Assembly (NCBI RefSeq): GCF_057098645.1
Contig: NZ_CM169472.1
Reading direction: 5' to 3' (one strand)
Length of the DNA stretch: 64,000 nt
Below are positions 21,901-36,900 of this stretch, piece by piece. Made by a program: the position numbers. Each line of letters starts with the position of its first letter. Position 1 is the stretch's first letter.

Positions 21901-24900
21901 CATAGTGATGCTGGCCTGCATAGGAACAAAGAACATCGCGAGGCTAATCACTGCCAGCAGGGCGTTCGTCCACCAGAAGATAGTGACTTTACATTTCCAG
22001 TCGGTCAGCGGTTTTGCCAGTGCGGAACCAATCAGGTTACCCACGCAATAAGTGGTGAGAAAAGCGACAAACACTTCCGGCGTACCCAAAATCCATGTGA
22101 CGTAATACATCATCGCTCCACCGCGGACGCACACCGCCAGGATATTGAAAATGGTTAGTAAACCGACAATCCGCCACTGGTCGTTTTGCCAGATATCACG
22201 TAAATCTTCCCGCATAGACGTCGTTGTAGGTGGTGCTTCAACGCGTTCTTTAGTGGTGAAGAAACAGAATGCCAGCATCATGAATGCCACCACGGAAAGG
22301 ACCGCGATACCGCCCTGGAAACCGAGTGGTTTATTATCACCGCCAATTAAATTAACCAGTGGCATCATCAGAACAGTAGAGAGCATGCCTCCCGCGGTCG
22401 CCAGCACAAAACGCCAGGATTGCAGCGAGATACGCTGAGTCGGGTCATTGGTGATTACACCACCCAATGCGCAGTAAGGGATATTGACGACGGTATAAAG
22501 TAAGGTAAGTAGGGTGTAAGTAATTGCTGCATAGATCATTTTGCCGTTCATACTGAGATCTGGCGTGCTATAGGCCAGTACACAGACGATCCCAAATGGC
22601 AGTGCGCCACACAGTACCCACGGACGAAATTTACCCCAGCGAGAGCGCGTTCGATCGGCCAACAACCCCATGCAAGGATCGGAAATCGCATCCAGTGCAC
22701 GAGCGACCAAAAACATGGTTCCGACAAATCCGGCAGGTATGCCAAAATTATCGGTATAAAAGAACATCATATATAACATTACGTTATCGAAAATAATGTG
22801 GCTGGCGGCGTCTCCCATGCCATAACCAATTTTCTCTTTAACGGACAACACTTCACTCATCATCTGCTTTTCCTTGATGCTATAGGGGTGCTGAGACCGA
22901 TAACGCATTTTGTAAACCATCCCTGTGAGAGCGAATATTCCGATATCTGGTTATTAATTTATGATTCTTGTTTTATGTGATCGTGGTAGCGTTAATTCCG
23001 CTCATATATCATTGTAAAATATGGGTTTTATATGAATTATAATGCTTTCGTGATAATACGCTGCGTGTATTAGGCGGAAAAAACTGATCTGGGGGATGTA
23101 GAAACTCAAGGAAGTAGCTATAATGCGCCCCGCCTCCATGTAGCAATCGAGGCGCGGAAGATCGTCGTCTCCGGTGAGGCGGCTGGACTTCAAATCCAGT
23201 TGGGGCCGCCAGCGGTCCCGGGCAGGTTCGACTCCTGTGATCTTCCGCCAAACCTCATCCAGCCAGTTCCGAGACACTCCATAAAATCATTTATATTCAA
23301 TGCGATGAATAATCAGCTTGTCCGTAATAGTCCGAGATCATCTCCCTGAATCCGCGAAAAATATGTATAGTAATGTGTATAGATTTTTTATACGTAGTTT
23401 TCAGTTATACACATGGCCCTAACCGATATACAGATCAAACGTGCAAAACCACAAGACAAACCATACACATTAAACGATGGACAAGGTCTGTCATTGCTTA
23501 TCAATCCCGATGGCTCGAAAGGCTGGCGTTTCCGTTTCCGGTTTGCAGGGAAAGCGCGGTTAATGTCATTTGGCAGCTACGATTTAGTAAGCCTCGCAGA
23601 AGCACGTGAGAAACGCGATACGGCTCGTAAGCAGGTAGCAAACGGCATTGATCCAGTAGCAGAGCGTAAGGCTCAGAAAATTGCTCAGAAATTATCAACT
23701 GAAAACTCTTTTGAGGCCGTTAGCAGAGAATGGCATGCAGCAAAAGCAGATCGCTGGACTTTAGCTTATCGCGAAGAAATTATTAAAACATTTGAACAGG
23801 ATGTTTTTCCTTTCATTGGTAAACGGCCAATAGCTGAAATTAAACCCCTAGAACTGCTTGAAGTTCTTAAACGCATAGAAAAACGTGGAGCGTTGGAGAA
23901 AACCAGAAAAGTACGTCAACGATGCGGAGAGGTGTTTCGCTACGCGATCATCACTGGCCGCGCTGAATACAATCCAGCACCTGATTTAGCTATCGCATTA
24001 GCTGTACCGAAGCAAAAACATCATCCTTTTCTATCAGCAGAAGAACTCCCTCATTTTGTCAGAGATCTTGAGGCTTACACAGGTAGCATAATCACTAAAA
24101 ATGCAACTAAAATTGTGATGCTTACTGGAGTCAGGACACAGGAAATGCGTTTTGCCACTTGGGACGAAATTGATTTACAAAAAAAGGTATGGGAAATACC
24201 GGCCGAACGAATGAAAATGCGCCGACCACATCTTGTACCACTCTCCACTCAAGTAGTTGAAATTTTTCAACAACTCAAGCTAATCACCAAAAACTATCCA
24301 TATATTTTTATCGGCCGTAATAATCACACTAAGCCAATTTCTAAAGAAAGTGTATCCCAAGTAATAGAATTACTTGGCTATAAAGGAAGAGCTACGGGCC
24401 ACGGATTCCGCCATACAATGTCTACTATTTTGCATGAGTACGGATTTAACAGCGAATGGATAGAATTACAATTGGCTCATGTTGATAAGAATAGTATTCG
24501 AGGCACTTATAATCATGCCCAATATTTAGAAAAGAGAAGTTCTATGATGCAGTGGTACAGTGATTATATCCTTAATAGAGATAAAGCATAGAATAATAGA
24601 AGTTAATGCTGTATACTGTAAATTAACAATATAGTAAGGATTGAAAATGAAGAAGACAGTACTTATAACTGATTTAGATAACACACTATTCGACTGGTTT
24701 AGCGTTTGGTATCATAGCTTTAATGCAATGCTAAATAAAGTCGTTGAGATTTCCGGTTTTTCTAAAGACGAGCTTATTGCACAGATAAAACCAATTCATC
24801 AAAAATATGGTACTGCCGAATACTCTTTTATTCTAGAAAGCATACCTCTTTTACAAGAAAAATATGGTGATAGAAACTCCATCAATTTAGTTATGGATGA

Positions 24901-33900: not shown

Positions 33901-36900
33901 CTGATGGCGAAAACCCGTCCCGGAACCGGTAACGCCTACCTGACCCGCAAGGGCTTTCCCGGCCGGGAATGCCGGATGCTGACCGGCACACACAGATCCG
34001 GTGGCGTGAGCTGGCGTGCCGGTGACCTTGTGGTGCCACTGTATGACGACAGCGGCGAACTGGTTAACCTTCAGTTAATCAGTGCTGACGGCCGTAAGCG
34101 CACCCTGAAAGGCGGACAGGTCAGGGGCACCTGTCACACCCTTGAAGGACAGAATCAGGCCGGAAAACGTCTGTGGATAGCGGAGGGATACGCGACCGCA
34201 CTTACCGTACATCACCTGACCGGTGAAACGGTGATGGTGGCGCTTTCTTCCGTGAACCTCCTTTCTCTGGCCAGCCTTGCCCGGCAGAAGCATCCGGCCT
34301 GTCAGATTGTCCTTGCCGCAGACCGTGACCTCAGCGGTGACGGCCAGAAAAAAGCCGCCGCAGCCGCAGATGCGTGTGAGGGCGTTGTTGCCCTGCCGCC
34401 GGTCTTCGGTGACTGGAATGATGCCTTCACGCAGTACGGCGGGGAGGCCACCCGTAAGGCCATTTACGATGCCATCCGGCCACCGGCTGAAAGCCCGTTC
34501 GACACCATGAGCGAAGCAGAGTTTTCCGCCATGAGTACCAGCGAAAAGGCCATGCGTATCTATGAGCATTACGGCGAGGCGCTCGCGGTTGATGCCAACG
34601 GCCAGCTTCTGTCCCGTTATGAAAATGGTGTCTGGAAGGTGCTGCCGCCACAGGACTTTGCCCGGGATGTGGCCGGGCTGTTTCAGCGTCTGCGCGCGCC
34701 GTTCTCCTCCGGGAAGGTGGCCTCCGTGGTGGACACCCTGAAGCTGATTATTCCGCAGCAGGAAGCCCCCTCCCGCCGCCTGATTGGCTTTCGTAACGGC
34801 GTGCTCGACACGCAGAACGGCACGTTCCACCCGCACAGTCCGTCACACTGGATGCGCACCCTGTGCGATGTGGATTTCACCCCGCCGGTGGACGGTGAAA
34901 CGCTGGAGACCCACGCCCCCGCGTTCTGGCGCTGGCTTGACCGTGCCGCCGGTGGCCGTGCGGAAAAACGCGACGTGATTCTGGCCGCACTGTTTATGGT
35001 GCTGGCAAACCGCTATGACTGGCAGCTCTTTCTGGAGGTGACCGGTCCCGGCGGCAGCGGCAAAAGTATCATGGCCGAAATAGCCACCCTGCTGGCCGGT
35101 GAGGATAACGCCACGTCGGCCACTATTGAGACGCTGGAATCCCCGCGTGAACGTGCCGCGTTAACTGGCTTCTCACTGATACGCCTGCCGGACCAGGAAA
35201 AATGGAGCGGCGACGGTGCCGGACTCAAGGCCATCACCGGCGGCGATGCGGTGTCCGTGGACCCGAAATACCGGGATGCGTACTCCACGCATATCCCGGC
35301 GGTGATTCTGGCCGTGAACAATAACCCGATGCGCTTCACCGACCGCAGCGGCGGCGTGTCACGCCGGCGGGTGATTATTCACTTCCCGGAACAGATAGCC
35401 CCGCAGGAGCGCGACCCGCAACTTAAGGACAAAATCACCCGCGAGCTGGCGGTCATCGTGCGTCACCTGATGCAGAAGTTCAGCGACCCGATGCTCGCCC
35501 GGTCACTGCTTCAGTCCCAGCAGAACTCAGACGAGGCACTGAACATCAAACGGGATGCCGACCCGACGTTTGATTTTATCGGCTATCTGGAAACCCTGCC
35601 GCAGACCAGCGGCATGTATATGGGGAACGCCAGTATCATCCCGCGTAATTACCGTAAATACCTCTATCACGCCTATCTGGCCTACATGGAGGCAAACGGC
35701 TACCGGAATGTACTCAGTCTGAAAATGTTCGGGCTGGGGCTGCCGGTGATGCTGAAGGAATACGGGCTGAATTACGAGAAGCGCCATACCAAACAGGGGA
35801 TACAGACCAACCTGACGCTGAAAGAGGAAAGCTACGGCGACTGGCTGCCAAAATGTGACGACCCTGCAACAACCTGACCCACCTGACCGGCATCTGCCGG
35901 TCTTTTTTTATCCCGACATCCCCCGAAGGTGAACAATCCACTGTTCACCCTTCACCGTATATTCACCCGTTATCACACTGAAATTAAAAGAGAAAAACGA
36001 AAGGTGAACAGTGTGAACAATCAAATCAAAAAAAACTTTTTTCTCCCTGCGTGATTTTCAGTGCAGGGGACTAATCGCCGGTATGAGTCACACCGGCAGA
36101 ATACCGGAGGTGAAGAATCGAATGTTCACCCTTCACCCATTATTCACCACCTATCATACTGAAATAAAAGGAGAAAAAAGAAAGGTGAACAGTGTGAACA
36201 GTTCTTTCGAAAAAAAATTTTTTTCCTGAGTTAACGTGCGTGAAGATACGTGTAAAAATTAATCGATAGATATTATATGTATAAGGATGTGTATAAATGA
36301 ATTATACTAGAAAAATATAAACGATTTGAATCAAATGTTTATATGGCAATTTTGACTCCTGTGATCTCCGCCAAACTTCCTCTTCTGAACTCTCCCGACG
36401 TCAACAAAACCCCTTTTAATCCCTTATATATCAGGCTTTCTTTGTGTACAGGGGTCAACCGACTCAACCTGTATCAAGTTGCTTTTGAGGATACTTTAGG
36501 GGGGTATTATTTCCTTTTGAAATATTAGCACCCCATAATGGGAAAAAGGTAATACATAACAATGGTTTTTAACAGTATCTTTGTTATACAAGGGGGCATT
36601 GAGGATATCAGGAAAAATCTCAAAATCGGTACGGACAGGAAACTACGTGGGCAGCAAAAACGTATGGTAACACCGGGAAATGCAACGCCCACCAGTCGGG
36701 CTAATCCACCACTCCAATCGTGGTTCGCAGTACTGCACACACGATTACCGGGCTATACAGGAGCGGTTTGGTCTGAAAACATCCATGCCGCGTAAAGGTA
36801 ACCGTTACGACAACACCTCAATGAAAAACTTATAGTAAACGCTGAAGAATGAAACTATCGTTTTAATAACCGGGATGAAGCCATCTAAGTAATACGGAAA

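Follow-up and report, generated by a model that had tools for sequence, protein, structure and literature searches.

The occupation of the tRNA-Sec gene (selC) by a P4-type phage satellite next to the locus of enterocyte effacement (LEE) is known biology, and the arrangement has long been known in Escherichia coli O157:H7. The first P4-like prophage described in selC was the cryptic retronphage phiR73, reportedly by Sun, Inouye and Inouye in 1991 (cited in PMC6174562 and PMC9122126); this satellite is flanked by a direct repeat of the 3' end of selC and has a retron as cargo in its variable slot. For O157:H7, prophage 933L (CP-933L) is said to have been reported by Perna et al. in 1998 (cited in PMC6174562). 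A later article describes the O157:H7 arrangement as a putative P4-family prophage 933L with the integrase intL (PMC4609726), while in O157 Sakai the whole selC insertion corresponds to SpLE4 (PMC2323221). Here we describe a stretch of 64,000 nucleotides from contig NZ_CM169472.1 (NCBI RefSeq assembly GCF_057098645.1), hereafter the window, in which positions 23230-36376 very probably constitute a 13.1-kb P4-family phage satellite prophage in selC, ahead of the LEE. No evidence contradicting this identity was found. What is new is just the exact combination of modules, which is present in none of 5,426 complete E. coli genomes, the best coverage of the region by any complete genome being at most 81%; the locus opens no new question.

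The selC element compared with P4, phiR73 and 933L

The identification rests on the comparison with P4 (reference NC_001609 / X51522). Two blocks, together 7.3 kb long, are collinear with the P4 prophage map and 97-98% identical to P4 in DNA: window 26257-27774 aligns to P4 11624-10107 at 98.2%, and window 30405-36223 to P4 10119-4291 at 97.1%. The initial annotation had proposed a P4-type satellite prophage at selC, with int, cos, psu, delta, sid, ori-like repeats, an alpA-like gene, alpha and a crr-like repeat in P4 order, and the alignment bears this out, since all the named features are present and syntenic. The full order of att, int, variable genes, cos, psu, delta, sid, ori, vis, CI RNA region, epsilon, orf151, orf106, alpha, crr and att is that of an integrated P4, according to the P4 annotation. 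With P4-like satellites defined by seven components (de Sousa & Rocha, bioRxiv 10.1101/2021.03.30.437493), all seven were found co-localised in the P4 order of int, (cargo), psu, delta, sid, alpA (vis), epsilon and alpha. Two of them, sid and epsilon, are probable pseudogenes, and the products of the six components other than int are 97-100% identical to those of P4 (protein identities were obtained by tblastn with P4 proteins).

The backbone begins at cos (26238-26256, minus strand), where the 19-nt P4 cohesive end GGCGAGGCGGGGAAAGCAC is found intact in reverse complement, at the junction of the right and left ends of P4, as established by comparison with both P4 ends. It is followed by psu (26421-26993, minus; 190 aa, 99.5% amino acid identity to P4 Psu; PHROG 6366) and delta (27067-27567, minus; 166 aa, 97.6% identity to P4 Delta; PHROG 603), the former intact and the latter intact and full length. 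Beyond sid, six exact copies of TGTTCACC, the type-I alpha-binding repeat, lie at 31112-31215 in the position of the annotated P4 ori. The same motif recurs in crr (35923-36223), which matches P4 4291-4590 and has two 120-bp direct repeats that match each other at 82%; within the 64 kb, the octamer occurs six times in ori, five times in crr and once elsewhere. The genes between these two sites include vis/orf88 (31494-31760, plus; an AlpA-type excisionase/regulator, 98.9% identity to P4; PHROG 2790 excisionase), orf151 (32618-33073, plus; 98.7%), orf106 (DUF5375; 33209-33529, plus; 100%) and alpha (33544-35877, plus), which encodes a primase-helicase of 777 aa with 99.2% identity to P4 (TIGR01613; PHROG 2249), all four of them intact. 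The interval from ori to vis (31211-31610) is just 89-92% identical to every P4-like element compared, versus 98-99% elsewhere, and appears as a locally divergent regulatory region.

The likeness to P4 therefore consists in the collinearity at 97-98% DNA identity from cos through crr, with the same 19-nt cos end and the same ori/crr motif. The differences lie in an Int about 40% identical to that of P4, in an att site which is selC, unlike P4's own site, in the presence of misB-misC in place of gop-beta-cII, in another specificity of the CI RNA, in an interrupted sid and in a frameshifted epsilon. A tblastn search with P4 proteins found none of gop, beta and cII in the element. With phiR73, the element shares the selC site, the direct repeat and a cargo of defence type, and differs from it in that this cargo is type II Metis and not a retron. 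Sought in a phage collection both by DNA and by integrase protein, phiR73 was not found there, and the best phage integrases were about 48% identical. Given that Int is of the selC type and 38% identical to P4 Int, the element is on site specificity closer to phiR73 and O157 933L than to P4.

The comparison with 933L, or the left part of SpLE4, in O157:H7 reveals the identical layout with another cargo: selC, int, cargo, psu, delta, sid, vis to alpha, an attR with a single T, an IS3 remnant (IS, insertion sequence), then espF and the LEE, with a backbone 97-99% identical. The O157 element differs in its cargo, made up of a DEAD/DEAH helicase and a hypothetical gene, in a 90%-identical int allele, in an intact sid and, in strain 9000, in an ISEc8 directly after attR; the window for its part has misBC, an IS21-family insertion in sid and the epsilon frameshift. 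The same layout is again found in O145:H28 RM9872, with GapS4a as cargo.

Attachment sites and the border with the LEE

The element lies between two copies of the end of selC. The gene itself (23156-23250, plus; tRNA-Sec with anticodon TCA, by ARAGORN and Rfam RF01852 at 83.8 bits) is found at the left end, its 3' end belonging to attL, whose core GACTCCTGTGATCTTCCGCCAAAC (23230-23253, plus) is identical in five other selC loci. Local alignment of the two ends places the attR core GACTCCTGTGATCTCCGCCAAAC at 36354-36376 (plus), a partial copy of selC lacking one T: it reads GACTCCTGTGATC-TCCGCCAAAC and retains 23 of the 24 bases of the attL core, with partial matches on both sides. The initial annotation had taken the selC 3' end and its imperfect recurrence as the brackets of the prophage, and these are a true att pair, as demonstrated by 39 genomes with an empty site and by LEE-less copies carrying the same module. 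The exact 14-mer GACTCCTGTGATCT occurs in the 64 kb solely at attL and attR, for a chance expectation of 0.22 matches with up to two mismatches, and the repeat of the core is far beyond chance. Both ends are also adjoined by copies of ATRTGTATAR, three on the int side (23361-23414; copies at 23361 plus, 23373 plus and 23405 minus) and two on the attR side (36275-36296, plus). All five matches of this motif in the window adjoin att sites, with 0.37 expected by chance and none of 100 shuffles reaching five, which makes them likely arm-type Int binding sites.

One could nevertheless consider that a repeat with one indel and flanking mismatches is coincidental, and that it surrounds a scrambled phage remnant without defined ends. 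The complete collinearity with P4 and the restriction of the exact 14-mer to the two sites alone do not fit such a remnant, and neither does the outcome of excision in silico, which recreates a natural allele with 99.9% identity. When selC was joined straight to the sequence that follows attR and used as a query, 39 complete E. coli genomes matched it as a single alignment, at up to 99.9% identity; in one of them, selC is followed by the IS3 remnant, then by espF, escG and escF. This empty junction between selC and the LEE flank refutes a coincidental repeat, to which we attach a negligible probability.

Conversely, in strains E6 and WWCOL-236, which lack the LEE, selC is occupied by the module from int through alpha to attR, bounded by the same core repeat. 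The 39 empty-site genomes and these LEE-less loci together imply that the satellite and the LEE are independent elements at one tRNA site, where direct repeats of the tRNA 3' end and natural empty sites are both found. The uninterrupted junction of satellite, attR and LEE is present in 28 genomes. The separation of selC from the LEE by the satellite, which had been proposed beforehand, is thus a tandem, compound occupation of the site. On the left, the closest match changes inside the 400-bp bin that holds attL: the chromosomal side is 100% identical to O145, and the element side 100% identical to E6. The element's own tyrosine recombinase would have catalysed recombination between attP and the selC 3' end, and integration would have left an intact selC at attL and a partial copy at attR, abutting the LEE flank.

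It has to be considered whether the integrase, the att repeat and the P4-like genes could instead be the mobility module of the LEE itself, in a composite island. The annotation of O157 Sakai, which unites everything inserted at selC in a single prophage-like element, SpLE4 (PMC2323221), is in line with this, as is the assignment of intL to a prophage 933L 'carried in the LEE' (PMC4609726). Such an island is difficult to reconcile with the 39 genomes in which the LEE flank lies directly at selC with no P4-like module, with the module occurring alone and with the same att cores in LEE-less strains, or with the different island that occupies this gap in O55:H7 DEC5B. Moreover, a third att copy was sought at the distal end of the LEE of O145 RM9872 and none was found, the best match having three mismatches, which is the level of chance; one composite element with att sites at its two ends is therefore rejected, and the composite island is in our view highly improbable. 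The interval between selC and the LEE is accordingly best taken as a separate, well-understood mobile element and not as a part of the virulence island, which bears on LEE boundaries and on annotation.

The right border of the satellite is also where the LEE island starts. Homology to LEE-less strains stops at 36388, from which it follows that LEE-island DNA begins directly after attR, at about 36389, and the identical flank follows an intact selC in the 39 genomes. The distance of about 850 bp previously given between attR and the LEE holds for its first gene, espF (37230-38117, minus; NCBIfam effector_EspF, 575.7 bits), whose 3' end at 37230 is 854 bp after attR; it does not hold for the island DNA as such. 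The selC-proximal LEE flank in between (36389-37229, plus), outside the satellite, contains a remnant of an IS3-family transposase at about 36683-36998 (NCBIfam transpos_IS3 fragment), and the window is collinear with the LEE of O145:H28 up to 55482, at 99.3%. The first 40 or so bases past attR (36377-36415, containing ctgaactctcccgacgtcaaca) are also found after attR in the LEE-less strain UID2309220027, beside a full-length rhuM, and most LEE-less strains have rhuM fragments alone past attR. From these traces, the region downstream of selC looks like the remains of several older islands.

The missing T of attR is not peculiar to the window. The single-T form (GATCTCCGCC) is found in every LEE-linked locus examined (the window and five comparison loci), including O55:H7 DEC5B, in which selC and the LEE are separated by an unrelated island with DUF4942, DUF957 and DUF5983 genes. 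Among the LEE-less P4-like loci examined, five of six have TT at attR, and the core pattern found no match in the sixth (NCTC9066). The single T may reflect one old integration followed by swapping of modules, or an effect of the crossover point. As a tentative proposition, to which we give a low probability, the partial selC copy lacking the T may have been fixed in the LEE flank long ago and not be a product of the integration of this satellite; if the base falls in the strand-exchange region, any element that lands between selC and the LEE would be trapped there, and incoming satellites would renew its module of int and defence cargo through homologous recombination. The left 2.8 kb of the window, 100% identical to a poultry strain, may then be one such exchange. 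Were this true, LEE-positive lineages would keep a permanently docked, exchangeable anti-phage cassette beside their virulence island.

The cargo and integrase module

The slot between int and cos, which holds gop, beta and cII in P4, is occupied by two genes spaced 1 bp apart, misB and misC. The first (24647-25513, plus) encodes a HAD-family phosphatase of 288 aa, matched over its full length by PADLOC PDLC03008 'Hydrolase' (654 bits) and by HAD families in NCBIfam; its N-terminal DLDNT motif (DxDxT) fits a HAD-superfamily phosphatase with its catalytic aspartates. The second (25515-26147, plus) encodes a predicted three-transmembrane effector of 210 aa, matched over its full length by PADLOC PDLC03009 'Hydrolase-TM' (465 bits), in which 19-aa windows delineate three hydrophobic segments, at aa 42-65, 73-98 and 148-175. 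Both proteins are 100% identical to the products named misB and misC by PGAP in strain E6, and judged by sequence, the pair is the MisB-MisC of type II Metis.

The slot between int and psu is an established anti-phage hotspot, and a pair of HAD hydrolase and transmembrane protein from the P4-like hotspot blocks phage T7 (Rousset et al, 2022; PMC9122126). The pair has been named type II Metis in a recent preprint, according to which N6-methyl-dAMP (m6dAMP), released when phages degrade the Dam-methylated DNA of the host, triggers MisC, while basal m6dAMP is cleared by MisB (Osterman et al, 2025; bioRxiv 10.1101/2025.11.05.686725). The window has the same two-gene architecture, likewise placed between int and psu/cos in a P4-like satellite; the difference is that the mechanism in the preprint comes from a Phyllobacterium homologue, and the window allele is known from sequence. 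A Dam-dependent defence triggered by m6dAMP would, by analogy, be ascribed to the window pair. Its allele is rare: it was found in seven of the 5,426 complete E. coli genomes, all seven being selC P4-like loci whose matches end before the LEE flank, and none lies beside a LEE. The cargo slot hence holds a recently described anti-phage system in a rare allele, which makes the locus a small example of the swapping of defence cassettes in enterohaemorrhagic and enteropathogenic E. coli (EHEC/EPEC) lineages.

The adjacent int (23413-24591, plus) is intact and encodes a tyrosine recombinase of 392 aa of the selC-specific type (NCBIfam PRK09692, E=1e-86; PHROG 1 integrase). Its identity to P4 Int is 38% by tblastn and 41% in global alignment; the protein has the same sequence as in E6 (100%) and 90% identity to the alleles of O145 and O157. 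Relative to the latter, int is a mosaic in which the N-terminal 70 aa are conserved and the remaining two-thirds have 72-82% DNA identity. At the level of the locus, 23201-26000, comprising attL, int and misBC, shares 100% identity with E6, a poultry strain that lacks the LEE, and on its chromosomal sides the window is 99.7-100% identical to O145:H28. The presence of a module fully identical to E6 between O145-like flanks indicates that this left module is a recent import. Beyond it, the satellite backbone shares 98-99% identity with all P4-likes, none of which clearly stands out as the closest. Most of int seems to belong to the unit exchanged at the hotspot.

Lesions, immunity RNA and state of the satellite

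The initial annotation had reported neither an IS21-family insertion in sid, nor the frameshift in epsilon, nor the identity of the cargo genes between int and cos, and the element is not intact. An IS21-family element of 2.6 kb (27772-30410, minus) contains istA (28643-30178; NCBIfam transpos_IS21, 284 bits) and istB (27871-28626; IS21_help_AAA, 257 bits), both above the NCBIfam cut-offs, and has TGC...GCA ends and a short target duplication. Because the TGC is shared, its left end may be placed at 27772 or 27775, with a duplication of 5 bp (cctgc) or 8 bp (cctgctgc). It breaks sid, a homologue about 97-99% identical to that of P4, near codon 178, as read from the flanks against P4. The 5' fragment (30411-30942, minus; P4 Sid aa 1 to about 178; tblastn 96.7%; PHROG 6165) and the 3' fragment (27567-27774, minus; P4 Sid aa 176-244; tblastn) are separated by the IS, so that sid is a pseudogene. 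The IS is situated between the late promoter and delta-psu, on which it could exert a polar effect; a scan for terminators and promoters around it gave counts no better than in shuffles. The same IS21-family element, at 99.66% identity, is present in the selC satellite of WWCOL-236, at the ori region (9006-11649 of that locus), and the two cases are independent insertions of one IS into the same kind of element. LEE-linked P4-like satellites have been hit repeatedly by IS elements: that of UTME-3 has ISEc8 in psu and IS3 with ISEc12 in orf151, and in RM13516 an IS3 has removed selC and the 5' end of int.

The second lesion concerns epsilon, the helper derepression gene (32340-32622, plus). Alignment with P4, O145 and E6 reveals a 2-bp deletion after codon 4, in an A-run of A4 in the window versus A6 in the three others. 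In three-frame translation, the native GTG yields 13 aa before a stop is reached; the frame further on, which matches P4 aa 5-95 at 100%, has no start codon. The gene is a probable pseudogene, or else the product of an assembly error.

The regulatory RNA of the element is preserved. The CI immunity RNA (Rfam C4 antisense RNA; 32008-32095, plus; RF01695, 74.3 bits for a gathering score of 45) is preceded by the left-operon leader with the seqA target of this RNA (isrK, c4-a1b1; 31819-31909, plus; RF01394, 69.2 bits; RF03163, 50.4 bits). By alignment, seqA/seqB and seqC read, respectively, CTCGAAGG and CTTCGAG in the window, TTCACAGG and CCTGTGAA in P4, and GTTATCGG and CCGATAAC in E6. The seqC of the window thus differs from that of P4, and seqA and seqB have changed to match; this covariation of three sites across the window, P4 and E6 argues for an RNA immunity circuit under selection. 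The satellite of O145 RM9872 (11700-12000 of its locus) has a hybrid arrangement, with a seqA of P4 type (TTCACAGG) and seqC and seqB of window type (CTTCGAG and CTCGAAGG), such that one of the two CI targets would be mismatched.

Beyond the identity, boundaries, gene content and lesions observed here, the activities of Int and Metis and the interaction with a helper are what we infer. In the encoded programme, Int and Vis would act in integration and excision, and alpha, ori and crr in replication; immunity would depend on the CI RNA and its targets seqA and seqB; Delta would activate the late genes of a P2-like helper, capsid decoration and size would fall to Psu and Sid, and packaging to cos. 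Helper-dependent transfer, if still occurring, would be inefficient and would take place in large, P2-size capsids. We propose that the satellite is decaying and is retained chiefly as a resident immunity and defence cassette.

It could alternatively be held that the satellite is fully functional and mobile, with excision, replication, packaging and transfer driven by a helper at normal efficiency, the lesions being irrelevant or artefacts. The A-run frameshift of epsilon could indeed be a sequencing error, but the split of sid by a 2.6-kb IS with a target duplication is no assembly artefact of the homopolymer type. Int, vis, cos, alpha, ori, crr, delta, psu and the CI RNA are intact, yet the IS stands between the late promoter and delta-psu, and the cores of attL and attR differ by an indel. 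With the IS, the element measures 13.1 kb versus 11.6 kb for P4 (about 10.5 kb once the IS is subtracted). Recent horizontal movement is implied by the 100% identity of the left 2.8 kb to the element of an unrelated poultry strain, and near-identical backgrounds occur with and without the P4-like element; on the other side, the remaining LEE-linked copies are also riddled with IS elements. On balance, full functionality appears unlikely to us.

Several points nonetheless weigh against the proposal of a decaying satellite. P4 mutants in sid and in epsilon still propagate in the laboratory, for which reason 'decaying' may exaggerate how much function has been lost. The frameshift of epsilon is situated in a homopolymer and could stem from the assembly, and the difference of 1 nt between attL and attR may or may not fall in the strand-exchange overlap. 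No P2-like helper was seen within the 64-kb window. Of little weight, a search of IMG/VR for the attP form of the element with two attP-specific patterns returned 0 matches, a result that is uninformative because satellites are rarely represented in that database.

Two further features of the window lie outside the satellite. The espF product has 295 aa, and its gene contains 141-bp tandem repeats (37308-37895), with one unit more than the O157 allele of 248 aa; espF is annotated as truncated in two O145 assemblies. An IS3-family element is also present at 12230-13650, between recG and gltS, with its orfB at 12412-13299 on the minus strand (NCBIfam transpos_IS3, 312 bits). It is missing in strain Z1323HEC0399, otherwise 99.7% identical, and an IS3 found in yicI of that strain is missing in the window.

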